Below, piece after piece: positions 9,192-53,432 of a stretch of 64,000 nucleotides of DNA. Within the stretch, counting starts at the first letter, position 1; each line of letters begins with the position of its first letter. The notes beneath the pieces are model-generated. The model was not told the origin of the DNA. It saw only the letters and a list, made by a program, of their open reading frames with translations, and did not search any database. Position numbers and translations under genes: made by a program. The stretch comes from a virus. The stretch lies in the IMG/VR virus record IMGVR_UViG_3300021093_000054, positions 1 to 64,000 of that record, one strand, 5' to 3'.

Positions 9192-9784
9192 GTTAAATAA
9201 TTTAATATTTTTTCTTTTACTCCTAATTGTTTAATACCTTCATTAGATTTTGGTGTTAAAACGAAATTATCGATTGCCCATTCATCTTTCCACGGTTCAC
9301 CAATTTTCCCCATATTCAAATCATCTACAGAAACCCAATGTGTTATTTCAGGGTTATCGTGAAGGTATTGTTTTATTTCAATTGTTCGGGTTTGTTCCAA
9401 TTCCCATCGTGGTGACCATATAAAATTACTATCGTAATCTTTACAATTTTGTATGTTTGGTGTTAGAGCAATTGGTCGTTTGATAATCCCTTGACTCTCG
9501 TAGTAATCACCAAGTTCTTCTAATGTCGCATGAAATTTCCAATCTGAAGATACAACAATTTCACAACCAGTTTCTTCAAGAATTTCATTAAGTATCTTAA
9601 TTGCCTTTTTATCAAAATCATCAAAACGATATTCTACAGGAGCATCTTTTTTATCTTTACTACTATCTGGATTTTCACTACGATATTTCGCCCATTTTTT
9701 TAATCGTCCACCCCAATTGTTTGATAGACATATAACTGAGTCGTTATCAAGGAACAAAATTTTATGATTTTTAGTTTTTTCCAT
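9188..9784 (-). CDS. HAD-superfamily protein (HAD_SAK / RNA-repair-associated type)
   Basis: ILFLDNDSVI, IVVSSDW, WVSVDD motifs. Confidence 0.75.
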   Translation of the reverse strand: MEKTKNHKILFLDNDSVICLSNNWGGRLKKWAKYRSENPDSSKDKKDAPVEYRFDDFDKKAIKILNEILEETGCEIVVSSDWKFHATLEELGDYYESQGIIKRPIALTPNIQNCKDYDSNFIWSPRWELEQTRTIEIKQYLHDNPEITHWVSVDDLNMGKIGEPWKDEWAIDNFVLTPKSNEGIKQLGVKEKILNYLT

Positions 9785-44121: not shown

Positions 44122-44710
44122 TGTCTAATTTTTTTATAAAATATTCAAAATCAAAAGCAGGACTCAAGTCTGTGGATTCTTCATCAATATTTGATCTTGT
44201 GATAATCCCACTAAATGTTTCCAGTCTATTTGTTTTTGTATTATGTCCAATACAAATTGGTTCTATATTAAACTTTTTAGATAACTTAATACAAAGTTCA
44301 GCTGTTTTATCCAACTGTATTTGTGTATAAGGTTCCCAAAAAAAATAGTCTCTCCATTTCTTACTGAACACTTTCTCTTTATAAATACTCCCCAACCAGT
44401 TAATGTGATGATTTTTTAGTGGTTGTTTTTCTAACCAACCAAGATTTTCCAAAGAAATGATAATAGACTGTTTATCATACACAGTATTGTTTAACATTTT
44501 ACCATAATGTTCATCATCCATTGTTTGTAAAACAATACCTTCTTTTGTTACAATGTAATGTGGTAATTTATCATATTTCTTGTTGTGTCTATTTCTCAAT
44601 GCTGTTAAATATTCATCAGCATTTCTTGATGTGTGGGTTAAAACTATCTGAATTTTATTTTTTTCTACACCGAAATTATTGTTAATTTTTTTATCTAAAA
44701 TTTCAAACAT
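44114..44710 (-). CDS. N-acetylmuramoyl-L-alanine amidase (Amidase_2)-like protein
   Basis: IVLTHT, PHYIV..EG, SLEN.G, YT..Q, D..PAFDF; second His ligand is ambiguous. Confidence 0.7.
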   Translation of the reverse strand: MFEILDKKINNNFGVEKNKIQIVLTHTSRNADEYLTALRNRHNKKYDKLPHYIVTKEGIVLQTMDDEHYGKMLNNTVYDKQSIIISLENLGWLEKQPLKNHHINWLGSIYKEKVFSKKWRDYFFWEPYTQIQLDKTAELCIKLSKKFNIEPICIGHNTKTNRLETFSGIITRSNIDEESTDLSPAFDFEYFIKKLDNE

Positions 44711-45752
44711 TCTTTTTATATGTAAGTCTTTTTATACCACCAATATCATTTGTTGTTGTAGTTGTTTCCATAGGAACGTCTATCCAATAATCAACATTAT
44801 CAAATAAATCTTCATCATCTACTTGGTCGGTACTTGGTCGGTACTTGGTCGGTACTTGGTCGGTTTCTTCTTCAACTTGGGGGGTACTTGTGGGTTGGTT
44901 GTGGATTGGTTGTGGGGTTGGTAGATTGGTTGATTGAAAATTTTCATCTTCTTTTCTACTGGACTTGAATGCTTGATTTGTTGCAATAACCAAAGTAATT
45001 GCCAATGGATCAAAAACAAAAATCAGAATTAAAATAAAAAGATTTGCAGTTCTTTTTATTTCCCAATCTAAAAGTTCACTTACGTATTTGATTGCACCAA
45101 GTTCACTATTCCCAATGTCTTGTGATTCCATATCTAAAATCTGAACATCAAGTTTTGTTATACTATCGTTATAACCATCGATTCTTTTTGAAATTGTATC
45201 TCTTCTTGATTGTGCTTCTTTTAATTGTCCTTCAAATGATTTTCTATTTGCATTATTTGCTCTTGTAATTAATTGCCCAGTTCTTTGGTCTACAGTTTGT
45301 GTTGTTGTATTTGTAGATAGTCCATCCCTTAATTTTGTAATATCACCATCGAGGGTTATTTTTTCTTTTGTTAATTCGGTTTTTATTTCTTCAAATCTTT
45401 TCTTTTTAACTTCAACATTCTTTACTTGTTTTTCACTTATTTCAAGTTTTGCAATATTTCCTTGGAATCCGGTACTAAGTAATCCATAGATACCCAAAGA
45501 AGTAATAATTGATAATATTATAAGTGCAATTGTCATATAAATTTTTAAGACACCATATGTTTGTTTCCATTTATCGTGAAGATATGTAGCTATTGCTATT
45601 TTAGAAATTTCAAGGAAGGATCCCATTATTATTACCGGAATTGCAACACCGACAAACACAATGGACAAACCAACAACACTATAATATGCTGCGGTTGCTG
45701 ATAAACCAAGAGCACAAAATAACATAAACCAGGGTAAAAATTTTTCTTTCAT
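44703..45752 (-). CDS. Multi-TM coiled-coil membrane protein
   Basis: SATAAYYSVVGL, LEISK, TSLGIYGLLS, FVFDPLA. Confidence 0.75.
   Translation of the reverse strand: MKEKFLPWFMLFCALGLSATAAYYSVVGLSIVFVGVAIPVIIMGSFLEISKIAIATYLHDKWKQTYGVLKIYMTIALIILSIITSLGIYGLLSTGFQGNIAKLEISEKQVKNVEVKKKRFEEIKTELTKEKITLDGDITKLRDGLSTNTTTQTVDQRTGQLITRANNANRKSFEGQLKEAQSRRDTISKRIDGYNDSITKLDVQILDMESQDIGNSELGAIKYVSELLDWEIKRTANLFILILIFVFDPLAITLVIATNQAFKSSRKEDENFQSTNLPTPQPIHNQPTSTPQVEEETDQVPTKYRPSTDQVDDEDLFDNVDYWIDVPMETTTTTNDIGGIKRLTYKKNV
44820..44864. repeat. 11-bp tandem repeat (TACTTGGTCGG)x4 in the coding region
   Basis: Four exact copies. Confidence 0.95.
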
Positions 45753-46328: not shown

Positions 46329-47231
46329 CTAATTTACCAAACTTTTTTGATAAATATTTTGGAATATGTAAGAAATTACATCAACGGTCCATCCATTACC
46401 AATCATTTTTTTTCTTTGGTTTAAAGTTGCAATTGATGTGTAGTTATCTGGTAGTGTTTGTAATCTTTCGTATTCCAGAATATTAAGTTCCCTTAAATTT
46501 CCATCAACAACAACACCATAGTTACAGGCCGTGTTTAGTGTATTTGTTTTACCGTGACTTACTCTACCTCTTCTTGTTTTACTCTTCGGAACTTCAAGGT
46601 TTACACAATCACCATTATTAGCATACAAATATCCTTGTTTTGTTCCATTCCTTATTTTAAAACCTTCGTCGTTTATATCTAACACAACAAGGTGGTCGTT
46701 TATTATTTTTTCTGAACCATCTGGTTTTAAAATATCTAAAATGTGAATGTTCTTATCTTCCATATTCTTATCAATTGGAATGTTAGTCCAATAAAGTCTT
46801 TGTCTTTTTTGAGCCGAAAAAAATTTACTGTCAATCATTATTGGTTCAACACCAATTGCGTCTGTTATAATTTTTTCCCATTCTTTTTTCATTACAACAT
46901 TTTCTAAAAGAAAATATGTTGGTTTTACTTCATTTAATATTCTAACATATTCCCAAAATAAACCACTCTTTCCGTCAAATCCTGTATTGTCACCTGACCT
47001 ACTAAATGATTGACATGGTGATCCACCTATAAGTAAATCAATTTTTGGTAATGTTGAGGTATCCAAACCTACAACACTACCTAATTGGATTGTATTTGGG
47101 AAATGGTGTTGTGTAAGGGAAATTGCGTGTTTATCAATTTCTGAAGCAAAATAATTATCAACTTCAATACCAGCTCTTTGTAGTGCTAGTTGTCCGCAGG
47201 AAATACCATCAAATAGACTCAATATATTCAT
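46329..47231 (-). CDS. DNA cytosine-5 methyltransferase (paralog 2)
   Basis: LSLFDGISCG, GGSPCQ, LLENV, Q.R.RLYW, GNGW. Confidence 0.93.
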   Translation of the reverse strand: MNILSLFDGISCGQLALQRAGIEVDNYFASEIDKHAISLTQHHFPNTIQLGSVVGLDTSTLPKIDLLIGGSPCQSFSRSGDNTGFDGKSGLFWEYVRILNEVKPTYFLLENVVMKKEWEKIITDAIGVEPIMIDSKFFSAQKRQRLYWTNIPIDKNMEDKNIHILDILKPDGSEKIINDHLVVLDINDEGFKIRNGTKQGYLYANNGDCVNLEVPKSKTRRGRVSHGKTNTLNTACNYGVVVDGNLRELNILEYERLQTLPDNYTSIATLNQRKKMIGNGWTVDVISYIFQNIYQKSLVN

Positions 47232-48027
47232 ATTTCATATTTTTGAATATATGTTCTATAATACCTACGGTCCAACCATTTCCTAACATTTTATATCTTT
47301 GAGTATTGGAAACAACTGAAGAATAATTATCTGGAACATTTTGTAATCTTTCGTATTCAACTGGTGTTAGCATTCTAATATTACCATTATCCATAACACC
47401 ACTCATTTGTTGATTACCAAATCCTTTATAATCTCTAGCAAGTAATGTTGCCGATTTATCACCACCAGGTTTATGTGTCTTTTTTTGGTTTGACACAATT
47501 ATATGTTGACCACTTAAAAGTATATCAGACATTTTTACATTTTTATCTTCTGGTTGTTTTATATTTGAAATGTTGGTCCAGTAGAGTCGTTTTCTATTTT
47601 GTGCAGAAACAAGATTACTATTTATTAAAATTGGTTCAACACCCATATGTTGTGTAATAACATCTTCATATTCTTTTTTCATCACAACATTTTCAAGTAA
47701 AAAGTATTTTGGTTTACATTCTTCCATTAACCTAACAAATTCAAAGAACAATTTACTTCGTTCGTCTTCGAAATTTAATTGTTTACCAGCAAATGAAAAT
47801 CCCTGACACGGACTACCACCAATAAGTAAATCAATTGGTGGTAGGTCAGTTCCTTTAACTTGTGTAACATCACCAATTTGTATTGTTTCTGGATAGTTAT
47901 GTTGTGTTACTTGTATTGCAAACTTATCTATTTCTGATGCAAAGTACTTATCATATTTAATACCAGCTTTGTTTAGTGCAATTTGTCCACAGGACATTCC
48001 ATCAAATGAAGAAAGTACATTCATCAT
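47209..48027 (-). CDS. DNA cytosine-5 methyltransferase (paralog 1)
   Basis: FDGMSCG, GGSPCQ, LLENV, QNRKRLYW, GNGW. Confidence 0.93.
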   Translation of the reverse strand: MMNVLSSFDGMSCGQIALNKAGIKYDKYFASEIDKFAIQVTQHNYPETIQIGDVTQVKGTDLPPIDLLIGGSPCQGFSFAGKQLNFEDERSKLFFEFVRLMEECKPKYFLLENVVMKKEYEDVITQHMGVEPILINSNLVSAQNRKRLYWTNISNIKQPEDKNVKMSDILLSGQHIIVSNQKKTHKPGGDKSATLLARDYKGFGNQQMSGVMDNGNIRMLTPVEYERLQNVPDNYSSVVSNTQRYKMLGNGWTVGIIEHIFKNMKYEYIESI

Positions 48028-48824
48028 AGATAGTCAAATAGTTCAGATGATTCATTACGAAGTCTACGAAGAGCTTTTTCTTTGATTTGTCTAACTCTTT
48101 CTTTTGTTAAGTTAAAATCTGACCCAATGTCTTCCAAAGTTCTTGGTGTACCAGTAAGGCCAAAATAGTCACCGATGATTGATTTTTCACGGTCGTCCAA
48201 AACATTAAGTAATGACAACAACTTGTCTTTAAGAATGTCTTTTGTATTAAACCCAGCGTCTGGAGCTACAGCATCTGGATTTTCAATAAGATCAATAAGT
48301 GTATCACCTTCTTCGTTGATATTCATATCAAGATTAATTATTGAAGGAAGTCGGGCAAACTTATCATCCAGTTTTTTACCGGATTGTTCAACTTCTTTTT
48401 TTGCTTTTTGTAAATCCTGGACAACATTAACTGGGAGTCTGATTGTTCTTGCATTGTCATTTAGGGATTGAATAATTGATTGTTTAACCCACCACACAGC
48501 ATATGAAATAAATCTTAAGTCTTTATTCCAATCAAAATTTTTAATTGCTTTCATAAGACCAAGGTTTCCTTCGGCAATAAGATCCGATAAATCAAGACCT
48601 TGATTCTGATACTGTTTTGCAACAGTGATAACAAAACGAAGATTTCCTTCCAATAGTTCGTCTTCTATTTTTTTTCTTTCTCTTTCCGAAATCTCTTCAG
48701 ATTTCATTTTCAAAGCAAGCTCCTTCTCACGATCTGGAGTCATAACTTTAATCTTTCTAATGTCTTTTAGGTAGTGATAAATTTCGTCCTGATTAATTGG
48801 GGCACCGATGTTCTTTTCCTTCAT
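48024..48824 (-). CDS. RpoD-family sigma-70 factor
   Basis: YLKDI, NLRFVITVAKQY, DLIAEGNLGL, RFISYAVWW, ARTIRLP, LTKERVRQIKEKALRRLR. Confidence 0.93.
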   Translation of the reverse strand: MKEKNIGAPINQDEIYHYLKDIRKIKVMTPDREKELALKMKSEEISERERKKIEDELLEGNLRFVITVAKQYQNQGLDLSDLIAEGNLGLMKAIKNFDWNKDLRFISYAVWWVKQSIIQSLNDNARTIRLPVNVVQDLQKAKKEVEQSGKKLDDKFARLPSIINLDMNINEEGDTLIDLIENPDAVAPDAGFNTKDILKDKLLSLLNVLDDREKSIIGDYFGLTGTPRTLEDIGSDFNLTKERVRQIKEKALRRLRNESSELFDYL

Positions 48825-48826
48825 AT

Positions 48827-49363
48827 TTATATTTGTTTCGAATATTCGTCTAGTTTGTCTTTCTCAGCTCTTGTTAATGAGCCAATTCCATTCTGTAAAA
48901 TCTTATCCAAAATTTCGTCAAGAGTCAAGTCACATACTTGATTTTTCAAAAATTCTTCAACACGAGTATTATGTTCTTCCATAAATTTCTTTATGTCAAA
49001 AATAGGTTTCTTATCCATAAATATTTCTTTAACACGATTTTTGGTTTTTGGTTTCCTACCTTTTTTGTTTAATTTCTTCAAATGTTCCAAGTGTTCTGGA
49101 AGCATATTTGATGTCATAAATTTTGTTGTCTGAACAAGAACATACATAAAATCTGGTTTTTCATTATGTATTAAATCAACGTAGATTGTAAGTTCTGGTT
49201 GACACATATCAGATTCAAAGTGAAATATTGTATGGTTGTCACCAAAGACATAGGTAATATCATCAGATTTTGAAATTGTTGACAGTTCTTCAGCGATTTT
49301 TTGGTTGGTTTCTTCTTTGTCCCAGTTATTGTCGCAGGGATAGACGAATAGTAAGTATTTCAT
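48827..49363 (-). CDS. Hypothetical protein with C-terminal DUF6576-like motif
   Basis: LDEILDKI...G..SLT..EK..L; own TATCTTTG promoter at 49384-49391. Confidence 0.7.
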   Translation of the reverse strand: MKYLLFVYPCDNNWDKEETNQKIAEELSTISKSDDITYVFGDNHTIFHFESDMCQPELTIYVDLIHNEKPDFMYVLVQTTKFMTSNMLPEHLEHLKKLNKKGRKPKTKNRVKEIFMDKKPIFDIKKFMEEHNTRVEEFLKNQVCDLTLDEILDKILQNGIGSLTRAEKDKLDEYSKQI

Positions 49364-49445
49364 AGATTTTTATTTTGGTTCAACAAAGATAGTGAAAATA
49401 TTGGTTTCTAAACTAACTTTTTTTAAAAAATATTTTCAGACTATA

Positions 49446-49744
49446 ATTGTGATTACATTTTATTTGTTGATGGTTCACAATAAACAACCTCTAAACCGAA
49501 CTAACTAAATAGTTGTGATTACCTTCCATTTAAGTATGATTCACAATTTTATTAAATATGGATAGTATATTGTCCGAGTTGTGATTACCTTTCATTTAAG
49601 GATGATTCACAATGCGCACTGCCGGTTTGTCCGAACGATTTTTGTTGTGATTACCTTTCATTTAAGGATGATTCACAATTTCAATCGTTGGGGATGAATT
49701 ATACGGCAGTTGTGATTACCTTTCATTTAAGGATGATTCACAAT
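49446..49744 (-). CRISPR. CRISPR array: 5 repeats (36 bp), 4 spacers (29, 30, 30, 30 bp)
   Basis: Minus-strand repeat ATTGTGAATCATCCTTAAATGAAAGGTAATCACAAC, identical at 49709-49744, 49644-49679 and 49578-49613, 2 mismatches at 49512-49547, degenerate at 49446-49481; the degeneracy gradient points away from tnpB. Confidence 0.97.
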
Positions 49745-49851
49745 GTGAATTAGGAAACTTTACTATTGAAAGGTTCTTATCATCAACAGAAGTTGTAACC
49801 AACTTCCTCCGAATAATTAAATTGGATGTCACACCACCCAGTTTTTGTTTC
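49745..49851 (-). ncRNA. Putative tracrRNA/omega-RNA-like scaffold and leader between tnpB and the array
   Basis: Hairpin GAAGUUG-GUUA-CAACUUC (49789-49806) and anti-repeat GUUGAUGAUAAGAACCUUUCA (49787-49767), complementary to the repeat 3' part UGAAAGGUAAUCACAAC. Confidence 0.65.
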
Positions 49852-51030
49852 CTATTTTTTTAAACTGTCAAAGAACTTTTTTGTCCCTAAATCTCTAATG
49901 TTTAAGGCAGCATTTAAATCTCTATTCAAAATTTCACCACAATTTTCACATTTCCAGATTCTATCTTTTAATTCTAAATTTTTATTAATTGTCCCACAAC
50001 AATTACATTTTTTACTTGTTGGTTCAAATCTACCAATTTCAACTAAATATTTTCCACTATTTTTTGTTTTATAACCAATCATAGTTTTAAATTTACCAAA
50101 ACCAACATCAATTATACTTCTATTCAATCCAGATTTTTGTTTTACATTTTTACCAGGATTTTCTTTTGTACCTTTACTTGATTTTGTCATCCCTTTAACA
50201 TTTAAATCTTCCATACAAATCAAATCATAATTATCTACTAATTTTTTTGATTCGTTATGTAAAAAATTTTCTCTTGTATTAGCTACATTTTCATGTATTT
50301 TTGAAATGTTTTTTTTTATTTTTTTATAGTTGTTTGACCCTTTTTTTGCTCTTGCTAATTTTCTTTGTAAGACAGTTAGGTGTTCTTGATTTTTAGTTAA
50401 ATGTTTTGGATTTTCTATTACTTCGTTATCTGATGTGACAACAAATGCTTTTACCCCCAAATCTATACCAACACTTTTTTTAACTTCAACTTTTTTAAAA
50501 TTATTTGTGTACTCAACCATAATTGAGACATAATATTTATTGTGTTTTTTTGAAATTGTTACGGTTTTGATTTTACCTTCAATAGGTCTATGATATTTAA
50601 TTTTAATTAATTTTTCAACCTTTGGTATTTTCAAATAGCCGTCATATGTAATATATAAATTTTTAGAATTTTGCTTTGTACTTGGTCTTGTTGTAAAACT
50701 TTGAGTGGTGTCGGATTCTTTTTTGAATTTTGGGTAACCCCCTTTATTTTTAAAAAAATTTTTATATGCCTTTGATAAGGCCTTCATTTCATTACAATAT
50801 ATGTTTACATCATATTCGTTTAGAAATGGTGCTTTTACTCTATAATTTTTTATATGATAATTTAATCCAAAATGTGATAAATTTGATTTACCACCCAACT
50901 GATAAATTTGTTTTTCACAATCTAAAGAAACATTATAAACATATCTTCCGGCTTTGAAAGCCCCTTCAAAATATTCTATTTGTTTCTCTGTTGGGTAAAT
51001 CCTATATTTATATGCTTTATTTTGTTTCAC
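49852..51030 (-). CDS. tnpB: TnpB-family RNA-guided nuclease, CRISPR-associated, RuvC intact
   Basis: AYKYRIYPT HTH; RuvC-I GIDLG, RuvC-II MEDL, Zn finger CNCCG..CENCG, RuvC-III RDLNAALNI; GTG start. Confidence 0.93.
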   Translation of the reverse strand: MKQNKAYKYRIYPTEKQIEYFEGAFKAGRYVYNVSLDCEKQIYQLGGKSNLSHFGLNYHIKNYRVKAPFLNEYDVNIYCNEMKALSKAYKNFFKNKGGYPKFKKESDTTQSFTTRPSTKQNSKNLYITYDGYLKIPKVEKLIKIKYHRPIEGKIKTVTISKKHNKYYVSIMVEYTNNFKKVEVKKSVGIDLGVKAFVVTSDNEVIENPKHLTKNQEHLTVLQRKLARAKKGSNNYKKIKKNISKIHENVANTRENFLHNESKKLVDNYDLICMEDLNVKGMTKSSKGTKENPGKNVKQKSGLNRSIIDVGFGKFKTMIGYKTKNSGKYLVEIGRFEPTSKKCNCCGTINKNLELKDRIWKCENCGEILNRDLNAALNIRDLGTKKFFDSLKK

Positions 51031-51049
51031 AATACAAATATAGGATTTA
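50996..51049. repeat. 14-bp perfect inverted repeat around the tnpB start codon
   Basis: taaatcctatattt (50996-51009) / aaatataggattta (51036-51049). Confidence 0.8.
51035..51042 (-). promoter_or_regulatory. TAnnTTTG promoter for tnpB (leaderless)
   Basis: TATATTTG-TATT-GTG, same 4-nt spacing as five other genes. Confidence 0.7.
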
Positions 51050-51053
51050 TTTT

Positions 51054-53432
51054 TTAATTGGTCAAAAGTTTTGAGATATTATTTTGTTTTGTAATTTTTA
51101 TCACACAATCTGCCCATTGTGAGACCATAGGATTGTGAGTTATTACAAACACTTTATCAAAGTATTCCTTAATCTTTACAAAAAATTCAGACACCATCTC
51201 CAAGTTGTCATTACTTATTTTACCAAATACTTCGTCGAATACAATCAGATTGGGTTTTGGTAGAGAACATACTTTACTCAAAACTGATCTTAAGGCGAGT
51301 GATGCAATTGTTTTTTCATATCCGGACCCACTAACCATTAACTTTTCAACACCAGTATTATTATCTACCTGGATAAACTCAACCTCGGATTTATCATTAA
51401 TTCTGATTTCTAATTTGAAGTAACAAGAATCTTCCATCAACCTTTGTAATTCAGAGTTAATAAGTGGCATCATAGTTTTCATAATAATTTTACTAACACC
51501 ATTCTTACCATAACTTTCAAGATACATTTTATAAATCTTATCCTTACTTTCTTCTTCTTTAATTTTTACAATTAAATTTTTGTTATTGGTAATCTTTTCC
51601 TTATTTGATTTAATTGTATATTCATTTGTGTTAATCTGGTTATTCTTTTCTTTTAAAAGTTTATCATAACTTTCAAGTTTCAAGTCAGCTTTAATTAACA
51701 TAGAATCAATCTGGTCGTTTGTTTTAATCTTGTCCTGGACCTCACCCCACCTTTTTAATTTATCTTCAAACCCAGAAATTTTCAAGTCACAACTTTCAAC
51801 ACTCAAATCATATTTTTCTTTGATAAGTTTGTTTTTCTCATACTCATCAAATTGTCTTTTTGTCTCAACAAATTCTTTTTCTTTGTTGGTTAAATCCGTC
51901 ATTAACTTCTCAATAACCTTTTTTTGTTGTGTAAATCCATCAAGTTCAGATATTTTTTGTTGTGTAATTGCTGCGTTCATAAGTTCAATTCCACAGTGTT
52001 CACATTTAATACCACCCTTTACTTCTGACTTTAATTTTTCAATACCAGAAATCTTTGTTTCAAGTTCTATTTTTGAATGGAACTTAGTTTTATACTCATC
52101 TTTTACTTTGTCGTGTTTATCTTCTTCATAAAATTGTTCTGGTTCAACAACCTTTAGTGTTGAAAGTAGGTCAACATAAGATTGTCTTTCTTTTTTCAAA
52201 GTTTCTATTTGTGATTTTGTTGTTTCTGGATTAAGTAAGGCAATTTCTTTATCGATGTCTGAATGTTTCTTTTTTAACATCGAATCTCTATAATCTTTTC
52301 CTTTTGCTATACCATCCTCAATTTCTTTTACTTCACTTTTAAGAATTTCAATTTGTCCTTCAAGTTCTGTGATTTTACTTTCAAAAGATTCAATATCTTG
52401 TTTTAATTCTTCTGAATTATAGATATTTGATAATTTTGACTTACTAAATGATGAATAAATTTCTTTTGCAACTTCTTCCTTTTTCTTTAAAAATTCAAGA
52501 CCCATAAATCTTGAAAGAACTTGTCCTCTGGCTGTTGGTTTTGCTTCTAATAATTCTTCTAGGTTTGTTGCCGTTGTAAGAATTGTCATTAAGAAATCTT
52601 CCTTGGTCCCAATTGAACTTTTAATGAAGGCTTCAGTTTCTCTTCTTTGTTCTCCGGTAAAGTTCTGTAAAGAACCATCGTGTAGTTTTTTAAAGAAATC
52701 AAGTTCTGTTTTAACATTCCATTCACCTTTCTTTGATTTTTTTCTTTCAATTTTTCTTAAAATTATATAATCTTCACCATCAATTGTGATTTCACCTTTA
52801 ACAACAACCTCATCTTTATCAGAAAATCTATTAAAAACTTCTTCAGCTTTTGATGTCTTTGTTGTTTCATTGAAGAACAAGAACATTAGTAAATCCACCG
52901 TAAGAACCGTCTTGCCACCAAAGTTTGGTGGGTCCGATTCAACAACAACAATTCCATTCAACTTGTCAAAATCAAGTCGTTGGTTTTCGCCATATGATAA
53001 GAAGTTGGAGAACTCAATGTTTCTTATGTACCACTTTTTAAACTGTGTTGTTTCAGAATCATCTTCTTTCATTTTATTCTCAACCATTTTATTCAAATCA
53101 AGAATTTCTGTAAGATGTTCTCCATACCCTTTGGATTCCAAAAATTTCTTTAACAAATCAAGTTGATAGTTAACGTCAGTTATGTTCATTGATACATCAA
53201 CTGTTTGCATAGTTTCTGTGTCAACATTTTTTACTTTTGTAACAACATTAACATTTGTAGTGTTATACTTTTTTTGAAAGTAGTGTTTAACACTCTTCAT
53301 TTTGTCTTGTGTGAAATTTTCTTGTAGGTCTTCCCACACCACCTGGATAGATGGGTTTTCAAACTTTGAAAAATCCAAATCTTTTATCATAATATTGTAA
53401 TTGTATAATTTTGGTGGATTAAATAAATCCAT
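51054..53432 (-). CDS. sbcC: SbcC/Rad50 (T4 gp46-like) ATPase with N-terminal extension
   Basis: FSNFLSYG, NFGGKT Walker A, long coiled coil with CEHC hook, SGYEK signature, VFDEVFG, ITH. Confidence 0.88.
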   Translation of the reverse strand: MDLFNPPKLYNYNIMIKDLDFSKFENPSIQVVWEDLQENFTQDKMKSVKHYFQKKYNTTNVNVVTKVKNVDTETMQTVDVSMNITDVNYQLDLLKKFLESKGYGEHLTEILDLNKMVENKMKEDDSETTQFKKWYIRNIEFSNFLSYGENQRLDFDKLNGIVVVESDPPNFGGKTVLTVDLLMFLFFNETTKTSKAEEVFNRFSDKDEVVVKGEITIDGEDYIILRKIERKKSKKGEWNVKTELDFFKKLHDGSLQNFTGEQRRETEAFIKSSIGTKEDFLMTILTTATNLEELLEAKPTARGQVLSRFMGLEFLKKKEEVAKEIYSSFSKSKLSNIYNSEELKQDIESFESKITELEGQIEILKSEVKEIEDGIAKGKDYRDSMLKKKHSDIDKEIALLNPETTKSQIETLKKERQSYVDLLSTLKVVEPEQFYEEDKHDKVKDEYKTKFHSKIELETKISGIEKLKSEVKGGIKCEHCGIELMNAAITQQKISELDGFTQQKKVIEKLMTDLTNKEKEFVETKRQFDEYEKNKLIKEKYDLSVESCDLKISGFEDKLKRWGEVQDKIKTNDQIDSMLIKADLKLESYDKLLKEKNNQINTNEYTIKSNKEKITNNKNLIVKIKEEESKDKIYKMYLESYGKNGVSKIIMKTMMPLINSELQRLMEDSCYFKLEIRINDKSEVEFIQVDNNTGVEKLMVSGSGYEKTIASLALRSVLSKVCSLPKPNLIVFDEVFGKISNDNLEMVSEFFVKIKEYFDKVFVITHNPMVSQWADCVIKITKQNNISKLLTN

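Follow-up and report, generated by a model that had tools for sequence, protein, structure and literature searches.

A tnpB gene of a lake-water phage with an omega-RNA-like leader and a short CRISPR-like array: a candidate minimal type V-like module

The omega RNA of TnpB has been described as a natural single guide, and its splitting has been proposed as the origin of trans-activating CRISPR RNA (tracrRNA) as well as CRISPR RNA (crRNA) (Nakagawa et al, 2023). In Altae-Tran et al (2023; PMC10691335), where the type V-U* groups V-U6 to V-U45 are described, two possible origins are given for the arrays, duplication of an omega RNA segment or insertion beside an existing array. Transposon–CRISPR intermediates of ∼300–600 amino acids (aa) are known as TranC (Jin et al, Cell 2025, doi 10.1016/j.cell.2025.09.004, as reported in PMC13565253, PMC13639567 and two bioRxiv preprints). 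One of these, CauTranC9 (TranC clade 9; clade mean 414 aa), stems from a Caudoviricetes genome, is accompanied by five repeats, has no expanded REC or WED domain and a predicted fold near that of ISDra2 TnpB, and its native spacers match phages (bioRxiv 10.64898/2026.03.27.714800); the available part of that preprint reports a consistent tracrRNA structure for TranC clades 3 and 11 only. In the omega RNA of ISDra2, nucleotides −5 to −3 form a pseudoknot (PK) with the 5′ part of the scaffold, and its guide-PK-stem 4 order is described as corresponding to the guide-PK (R:AR-1)-stem 5 (R:AR-2) order of Cas12f (PMC10097598). Here, a related locus is described from the first 64,000 nucleotides (nt) of IMG/VR virus record IMGVR_UViG_3300021093_000054 (the window), in which a tnpB-like gene on the minus strand is followed by a leader and a CRISPR-like array.

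The window is part of a 73-kb record (CheckV completeness 25%; G+C 29%) of a lake-water phage, and the stretch is present in many 2018 lake-water metagenome runs. The locus probably constitutes a domesticated, single-copy phage TnpB module composed of promoter, tnpB, an omega-RNA-like scaffold and a mini array, that is, a minimal type V-like (TranC/V-U-like) RNA-guided DNA nuclease. The initial annotation had seen an anti-repeat and a hairpin between tnpB and the array and had interpreted them as a tracrRNA or natural single guide, an omega RNA in the process of splitting. This idea is already in print (TranC, Jin et al, 2025; type V-U) and was partly supported here; it appears right in outline, with the corrections that the tail of the repeat would form a pseudoknot and that the repeats belong to a host CRISPR family.

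That the gene product (P0001) is a TnpB was borne out by its domain matches, family score, catalytic residues and predicted fold. Pfam matches were HTH (PF12323), OrfB_IS605 (PF01385) and Cas12f1-like_TNB (PF07282), and the NCBIfam model guided_TnpB (NF040570) scored 296 bits (cut-off 100). The RuvC residues D190, E274 and D371 and the four zinc-finger cysteines (CxxC..CxxC) were invariant in an alignment of 43 relatives, and an AF2 model built on this alignment reached a predicted local distance difference test score (pLDDT) of 84.4. The best folds in the PDB, as found by Foldseek, were ISDra2 TnpB (8h1j; template modeling (TM) scores 0.71/0.77) and ISFba1 TnpB (8iaz; 0.75/0.77), with Fanzor2, LaTranC and Cas12f ranking below; the predicted fold corresponds to a minimal TnpB core lacking REC or WED expansions. 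At the sequence level, ISDra2 TnpB was matched over the full length (164 bits) and LaTranC in the C-terminal part only (75 bits). P0001 does not qualify as Cas12f, as the score of the Cas12f2 model (NF049972; cut-off 450 bits) was 63 and Cas12f structures aligned with TM scores of ∼0.6–0.67, below those of TnpB; the score for NCBIfam C2c8 (158 bits) also lay under its cut-off (350). The PADLOC models Cas12u4 (298 bits) and Cas12f (295 bits), which may match ordinary TnpBs as well, did match P0001.

The clade around P0001 in the protein database consists of unnamed proteins of 52–94% identity. Four loci from three lineages were compared at the DNA level, namely the window and the IMG/VR virus records L161 (identical to L002), L162 and L165, whose proteins are 53–55% identical to P0001 (those of L162 and L165 comprise 415 aa). 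In every one of the four, which are the loci of more than 50% identity with DNA at hand, an array lies directly downstream of tnpB; the association of a RuvC effector with a downstream array, as in type V and TranC-like systems, is thus conserved in 4/4 loci, and this despite differing flanking genes. Among 160 TnpB loci, judged by their printed coordinates, spaced repeats directly downstream were found only in the window and in L002. The next relatives (41–44% identity) have a different, canonical omega RNA, which ends in GTAGTTCAT or GTAGTTCAC and shares no sequence with the scaffold of the window, and none of their 17 printed flanks contained an array. Scans of viral, metagenome and genome collections for more relatives returned only three related records; besides L162 and L165, none of the loci scanned later exceeded 44% identity to P0001. 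For the 25 best of the GenBank phage records, as listed, identity did not exceed 39%, and all 419 records stayed below 60%. The candidates L163, L164, L166–L169, L170 and L171 were dismissed as chance motif matches. Two observations were made on other tnpB loci in passing: a canonical omega RNA of ∼95 nt, running from inside the end of the open reading frame (ORF) to GTAGTTCAT, is conserved in L003–L007, L014, L081 and L087, with visible covariation in its inner stems, and spaced direct repeats in 3–4 copies lie immediately upstream of distant tnpBs in L047 (2284–2457), L077 and L135 (2187–2431) and L132 (29–201).

The gene, the leader and the first repeat of the window comprise the following elements:

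51030..49852, minus strand: tnpB-like gene encoding P0001, 392 aa, GTG start
49847..49857, minus strand: 5′ arm of helix P0, AAAUAGGAAAC, covering the stop codon (inverted repeat I11)
49851..49745, minus strand: leader, 107 nt between tnpB and repeat 1
49823..49840, minus strand: hairpin SL1, UGGGUG-GUGUGA-CAUCCA, with loop UGUGA at 49833..49829
49788..49807, minus strand: hairpin SL2, which holds GAAGUUG-GUUA-CAACUUC; position conserved, sequence lineage-specific
49775..49784, minus strand: conserved single-stranded linker GAYRAYAAGA (GAUGAUAAGA here), containing the UGAU and AAGA of the initial annotation
49767..49774, minus strand: anti-repeat core ACCUUUCA, pairing with UGAAAGGU at 49725..49718 in repeat 1
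49745..49758, minus strand: end of the leader, with the 3′ arm of P0, GUUUCCUAAUU (49758..49748), and AUUCAC (49750..49745)
49709..49744, minus strand: repeat 1, 36 nt, 3′ part UGAAAGGU-AA-UCACA-AC, with the pseudoknot strand UCACA at 49715..49711

The elements from which the initial annotation had argued were all found in place, that is, the hairpin GAAGUUG-GUUA-CAACUUC (49806..49789), the anti-repeat GUUG-A-UGAU-AAGA-ACCUUUCA (49787..49767), the end of repeat 1 (49744..49709) in UGAAAGGU-A-AUCA-CAAC and the pairing of AUUCAC with GUGAAU (49741..49736), retained in each of the three loci where this hairpin occurs. The proposed duplex of 4 + 4 + 8 bp was the best that the leader can form with the 3′ 17 nt of the repeat (−14.1 kcal/mol); an equally good value arose in 11/2000 dinucleotide-shuffled leaders and in 12/2412 genomic segments of 107 nt (a set from which the repeats had not been removed). 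With the whole 36-nt repeat, the best leader duplex is another one and not unusual (445/2000 shuffles; 232/2412 segments), and a perfect 8-mer complement alone turned up in 386 of 5000 shuffles. For a genome of 29% G+C, the anti-repeat pairing is thus moderately better than chance. Stronger support comes from the other loci: L162 and L165 share the 8-bp core, L161 has it in weaker form, and the core lay within the best leader–repeat duplex in the window (reached by 7/1000 shuffles), L162 (19/1000) and L165 (56/1000). The core of the postulated anti-repeat is therefore conserved, but its extension is not, because L162 and L165 read GACAAC where the GUUG:CAAC and UGAU:AUCA pairs would form. Similarly, the competing 9/11 stem described for this leader is present in the window but not conserved in the relatives.

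When the stretch from the leader through the end of repeat 1 (in L161, through the retained 3′ 16 nt of the repeat) was folded separately for each locus, the minimum free energy (MFE) structures had the same architecture in 4/4 cases, consisting of SL1, SL2, an anti-repeat:repeat stem and a free tail. The proposal that leader and first repeat fold in cis like an omega RNA was thus supported by the predicted folds of all four loci, with the first unit of L161 fused. SL1 is a 6-bp hairpin with the loop GUGURA in the four loci, and SL2 is a hairpin of 7–9 bp at the same place in all folds, with a different sequence in each lineage. The long-range stem joins ACCUUUCA (GCCUUUCA in L162 and L165) to UGAAAGGU of the repeat (UGAAGGGU in L165), and the free tail AAUYACAAC adjoins the guide in the four predicted folds. 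Repeat 4 of the window, in which UGAAAGGU is changed to UGGAAGGU, retains a U-G wobble with the anti-repeat. Rfam gave no match below E = 0.3 within 48500–51500.

The structure, with a 5-bp pseudoknot added, was counted on an alignment of the four loci (A3), the same sequences from which it had been derived. Of all cells, 93.7% were paired and nine pairs were changed on both sides, which none of 500 shuffles reached, and slid controls were 38–50% paired. The SL1 stem (6 bp) was 100% paired and has, in L161, a compensatory change from U-A to C-G. For the pseudoknot (5 bp), which would join the SL1 loop to the repeat tail, the value was again 100%, UGUGA:UCACA being replaced by UGUAA:UUACA in L161 (G-C to A-U). 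In SL2, five pairs were changed on both sides, and its unpaired cells are due to loop-length misalignment in L162 and L165. The anti-repeat helix was paired in 96.9% of cells; three of its pairs were changed on one side to wobble and one on both sides (C-G to U-A), the latter, like the single unpaired cell, in L161. The AUUCAC:GUGAAU hairpin at the leader–repeat junction (6 bp) was 100% paired in three loci, with one pair changed on both sides. The check for covariation across homologous loci, which had been named as a way to examine the anti-repeat, thus came out in favor of the structure as a whole, but the anti-repeat helix itself varies mostly by wobble and its 4 + 4 extension is unconserved. 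A further helix, P0, pairs 49847..49857 with 49758..49748 (10/11 bp) and closes a tracr-like domain of ∼110 nt; part of it is formed by GUUUCC of the competing stem, which pairs with GGAAAC at the stop codon. The MFE fold of 49863..49745 contains P0 (z = −2.92). P0 also occurs in L162 and L165, L161 lacks both of its arms, and it shows no covariation. The GUUG:CAAC and UGAU:AUCA pairs compete with the pseudoknot for the same repeat tail. Pairing of this tail with the SL1 loop is more likely than an extension of the anti-repeat.

From this anatomy, a mechanism can be proposed. Transcription on the minus strand would run from tnpB through into the array, and the ∼110 nt past the stop codon would provide the tracr-like part of the scaffold (SL1, SL2, the GAYRAYAAGA linker and the 8-nt anti-repeat ACCUUUCA). 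The loop UGUGA of SL1 would form the pseudoknot with UCACA, which immediately precedes the guide. The second strand of both the guide-adjacent stem and the pseudoknot would come from the last 17 nt of the repeat (UGAAAGGU-AA-UCACA-AC), and the following 29–30 nt would serve as guide. In the case of spacer 1, a natural single guide could form in cis; use of spacers 2–4 would require the same scaffold to pair in trans with processed repeat–spacer units. The complex would then be expected to cleave DNA, with a likely role against competing phages or plasmids.

The relatives bear on the choice between cis and trans. In the first unit of L161, the repeat is reduced to its last 16 nt, which a short loop connects to the anti-repeat; true repeats follow. 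As L161 keeps such a fused, omega-like first unit, the reading as a natural single guide in cis is supported. The other three loci (window, L162 and L165) have the whole repeat in their first unit, and when a few nucleotides of the ORF end were included, P0 closed the leader in the MFE structure and repeat 1 folded on itself; both states, the cis scaffold and the P0-closed leader with a self-folded repeat 1, are plausible. For each of the four loci, the leader was also cofolded with repeat 2 extended by 20 nt of spacer 2. The expected anti-repeat:repeat duplex formed in 4/4 cases with a 20-nt repeat tag, but in 0/4 with the full 36-nt repeat. Use in trans as a tracrRNA is plausible, and, since the duplex was predicted only with the trimmed repeat, it would need processing or protein.

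The presence of a CRISPR-like array behind tnpB, reached via the leader, was confirmed. It is the sole array in the 73-kb record and has these parts:

49744..49446, minus strand: array of five 36-nt repeats and four spacers of 29–30 nt
49680–49708, 49614–49643, 49548–49577 and 49482–49511, minus strand: spacers, 29–30 nt
49644–49679 and 49578–49613, minus strand: repeats 2 and 3
49512–49547, minus strand: repeat 4, with 2 changes
49446–49481, minus strand: repeat 5, leader-distal and degenerate

Repeats 1–3 are mutually identical and the spacers unique, and the degenerate repeat stands at the tnpB-distal end. A contig from a different run, of 2025, was identical over 49708–49831 (repeat 1 and leader; 0 differences) and carried 27 unlike nt in the position of spacer 1, and in another run a repeat had a different neighbor at 49643. 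This is what turnover of spacers at the leader end would look like, and contigs are weak evidence for it. Separately, by eye, the arrays of L162 (∼9205–9240) and L165 (∼1000–1035) were seen to end in a truncated repeat followed, on the tnpB strand, by a G+C-rich hairpin and a T-run, which looks like a terminator.

The repeats have counterparts in host CRISPR systems. A pattern search for 36-nt repeats with GTTG and ACAAC ends and 28–32-nt spacers covered 201 genomes, all from the order to which a Flavobacteriaceae metagenome-assembled genome belongs. The generic pattern was matched in 4/201 genomes, and three of the four matches were arrays: that of G417 lies ∼270 nt from a Cas13b gene (NF038190, 505 bits vs a cut-off of 150), that of G441 follows Cas9-Cas1-Cas2, and that of G527 is on a 1.2-kb contig. 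Aligned without gaps to the Cas13b-linked repeat of G417, the repeats of the window and L162 were each identical at 25/36 positions and that of L165 at 28/36, values reached by 5, 6 and 0 of 20000 permutations, respectively (ends fixed, better of two orientations); for scale, the window and L165 repeats agree at 29/36. The L161 repeat was no better than chance (20/36; 6748/20000). To the Cas9-Cas1-Cas2-linked repeat of G441, the phage repeats were identical at 23–25/36 positions. The window, L162 and L165 thus have what characterizes VI-B arrays, 36-nt repeats of the Cas13b family with 30-nt spacers, and by sequence the phage repeats belong to the same family as the type VI-B (Cas13b) and II-C repeats of Flavobacteriales. 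The host is probably a member of Bacteroidota. A search for cas13b in the phage records (G000–G003) gave no NF038190 match, a weak blank given that 0/14 control genomes were matched either. The exact 11-mer of the repeat end, in doubled form, occurred in 0/3 and 0/401 genomes, and a literature text search for the repeat-end sequence had no relevant match.

In Flavobacterium columnare, a VI-B array without its own Cas1 is described as acquiring spacers through the Cas1 of a II-C system (Hoikkala et al, 2021; PMC8092290). Because the phage repeats are of the host II-C/VI-B family, the phage array could likewise be renewed by Cas1-Cas2 of the host. The likeness to host repeats also weakens the proposal that the array originated by splitting of an omega RNA, as capture of an existing array fits at least equally well; the array may thus stem from capture and not from the omega RNA. 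Specifically, it is possible, if doubtful, that it was captured from, or recombined with, a host II-C/VI-B array and that the anti-repeat and the pseudoknot loop of the scaffold were afterwards adapted to a foreign repeat. If true, this would be a concrete natural case of a transposon landing beside an existing array to give rise to type V, and it would allow Cas1-Cas2 of the host to re-arm the phage TnpB. A bolder reading would have the phage transcripts also supply Cas13b of the host, one array serving a DNA-cutting and an RNA-cutting effector. TnpB beside VI-B-like repeats was not found in print in a limited literature search, outside of which Jin et al (2025) lay.

Several points weigh against a functional TnpB module. 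Searches of the phage collection and of the four phage records gave no protospacer for any spacer, and no cas1 was found in these four records, all of which are fragments. The contigs of metatranscriptome run X22 cover only the tnpB ORF, in a variant of 95–97% identity. In the cofolds, the hairpin of the full repeat itself, together with P0, beat pairing in trans in 4/4 loci, and with the 20-nt tag the net gain was just −0.4 to −4.4 kcal/mol. The anti-repeat of L161 consists of A and U only and is not its best duplex (reached by 219/1000 shuffles), and the folding energies of the cis scaffold are modest (z = −1.55 for the window, −1.31 for L162 and −1.43 for L165). Lastly, the comparison covers four loci of three lineages, the pseudoknot resting on one compensatory event and P0 on none, while the anti-repeat helix varies mainly by wobble and the structure was counted on its own source sequences. 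Two details stand beside these points. The X22 contigs lie within 49847–51095 of the window, one of them stopping at 49847, beside the stop codon; being assembled, they show neither transcription nor RNA ends. Two A+T-rich partial matches of the distal "spacer" of L162 (22/24 in its own record and, with gaps, 26/∼30 at G000:68411) were judged to be chance.

Could the array serve the host rather than TnpB? It might be an orphan array of the VI-B/II-C family that is carried by the phage, used chiefly by effectors of the host (Cas13b, for example) and supplied with new spacers by host Cas1-Cas2, with TnpB being incidental or using the first unit only. This would account for the identity of three phage repeats to the Cas13b-linked repeat (and, to a similar degree, the Cas9-Cas1-Cas2-linked one), for repeat and spacer lengths (36 and 30 nt) equal to those of host arrays, and for the failure to find cas1 or cas13b in the phage records; the reported uptake of VI-B spacers in trans via II-C Cas1 (PMC8092290) provides a precedent. 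However, tnpB and array have stayed adjacent in 4/4 diverged loci with differing flanks, the SL1 loop and anti-repeat have changed along with the repeat sequence, and the first unit of L161 carries just the repeat portion required by the scaffold. Moreover, without the first repeat the TnpB scaffold would have no second strand for the guide-adjacent stem, no pseudoknot strand and no guide, and the blank in the Cas13b search is, as stated, weak. We therefore regard the orphan array as unlikely; it is compatible with the TnpB module, so that both may apply. Far less credible is a decaying, non-functional remnant, left by a TnpB that landed beside, or generated, a few repeats, the pairings being by-products of ancestry and A+T richness. 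Such decay would fit the small size of the arrays, the decayed state of the distal repeats of the window and L161, modest folding z-scores and the lack of spacer targets in the collections searched; the catalytic residues are, however, invariant over 43 relatives, repeats 1–3 are identical with unique spacers of a fixed 29–30 nt, the module has been kept at 53–55% protein identity with its own promoter motif, three helices show compensatory changes, and the leader-proximal spacer differs in another sample.

The other alternative concerns the RNA itself. As initially drawn, an interrupted duplex of 16 bp (GUUG:CAAC, UGAU:AUCA and ACCUUUCA:UGAAAGGU) would be the whole interaction, without a pseudoknot, and the repeat tail would pair with GUUGAUGAU instead of the SL1 loop; both statements appear quite improbable. 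The duplex is the best between leader and repeat end in the window, with the energy and shuffle count given above, and GUUG is present in L161, too. Yet GACAAC in L162 and L165 removes the 4 + 4 bp, CGAC of L161 is, by eye, unable to pair with AUUA, and the tail UCACA/UUACA matches the SL1 loop UGUGA/UGUAA in 4/4 loci, with one compensatory change. In addition, the solved omega RNA and Cas12f guide RNAs engage their guide-adjacent nucleotides in a pseudoknot, as described in PMC10097598. The TnpB module with a pseudoknotted repeat tail is hence the reading that is carried forward here.

The setting of the module includes a promoter-like site:

51037..51065, minus strand: TTGACC-17-TATATT, then TTGTATT and GTG; 10/12 consensus matches

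The layout TTGAC.. / TAnnTTTGTAyT abuts the start codon of tnpB in 4/4 loci (51030–51070 in the window), and TAnnTTTG before tnpB may represent a Bacteroidota-type −7 box. It is not in general excess in the genome (81 and 64 observed vs ∼71 and 46 expected). By its sequence and position, the motif suggests that tnpB has a dedicated promoter and that its mRNA is nearly leaderless. Genes and elements on the minus strand are arranged as follows: SbcD-like, SbcC-like, tnpB, leader, array, an ORF without assigned function, a sigma factor and two DNA methyltransferases, with a gap of only 23 nt between the SbcC-like gene and tnpB. There is one tnpB copy per record (G000–G003), and no Y1 TnpA (PF01797) was found in the four phage records, all fragments; together with the 23-nt gap, this is why the module is read as domesticated. 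What marks the TnpB of a mobile insertion sequence (transposon ends, often TnpA, several copies) was not seen here. Within the 3′ end of tnpB, the nine nt GTTCTTTGA (49865–49873, minus strand) are identical in 4/4 loci, and L161 reads them in a different frame (..RRSLIEI* vs ..KKFFDSLKK*); this nonamer may be an RNA or DNA element or merely reflect a recent frameshift in L161. The stretch that immediately follows the module (46329–48824) carries the sigma-factor gene and, side by side, the two genes for DNA methyltransferases, which belong to one PHROG (phrog_116). Further downstream, a perfect 11-nt tandem repeat, TACTTGGTCGG, occurs in 4.1 copies at 44820–44864 and a looser one at 44888–44922, both in a 349-aa ORF (44703–45752) without a PHROG match.

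The transition from TnpB to CRISPR Cas12 is now being studied in the V-U groups and TranC, and the present clade would add small natural examples from phages (392–415 aa). Within one family, it offers a graded series, from the fused omega-like unit of L161 to the full repeat and separately closed tracr-like domain of the window, L162 and L165, and with it an explicit RNA model for a compact effector (pseudoknot loop, 8-nt anti-repeat and closing helix). The likeness of the repeats to those of host VI-B/II-C systems bears on whether such arrays arise de novo or by capture, and on how phage mini-arrays lacking Cas1 could be supplied with spacers.

Compared with the systems described so far, the locus resembles TranC, as portrayed in the sources cited, in having a TnpB-derived, TnpB-sized nuclease beside a CRISPR array and an omega/reRNA scaffold that can be read as tracrRNA plus crRNA; the solved LaTranC is, however, distant from P0001 (75 bits in the C-terminal part only, TM 0.65/0.55). 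CauTranC9, which could be compared by description only (bioRxiv 10.64898/2026.03.27.714800), shares the phage genome, the five repeats, the TnpB-like size and the absence of added domains, whereas its repeat measures 38 bp instead of 36 and P0001 has 392 aa. With the V-U* groups and Cas12f, as described in PMC10691335, the locus has in common a TnpB-like effector and a short downstream array without cas1, cas2 or cas4, but P0001 scores under the NCBIfam cut-offs for Cas12f2 and C2c8. The predicted order of guide, pseudoknot and guide-adjacent stem and the position of the putative RNA at the 3′ end of the gene are as described for ISDra2 TnpB (8h1j, 8exa; PMC10097598). Unlike ISDra2, the phage module has no transposon context (no TnpA found, one copy and no space for a left end), its guide-adjacent stem is closed by a 44-nt loop that includes half a CRISPR repeat instead of a UUUA tetraloop, its scaffold lies nearly entirely downstream of the stop codon, and further repeat–spacer units follow. 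Like the VI-B/II-C arrays of Flavobacteriales, it has 36-nt repeats with GTTGTG...ACAAC ends and 30-nt spacers; it differs from these in that the phage records contain no cas13b, cas9 or cas1, that the neighboring effector is TnpB and that the guide sits 3′ of the repeat part, in the style of type V and TnpB.

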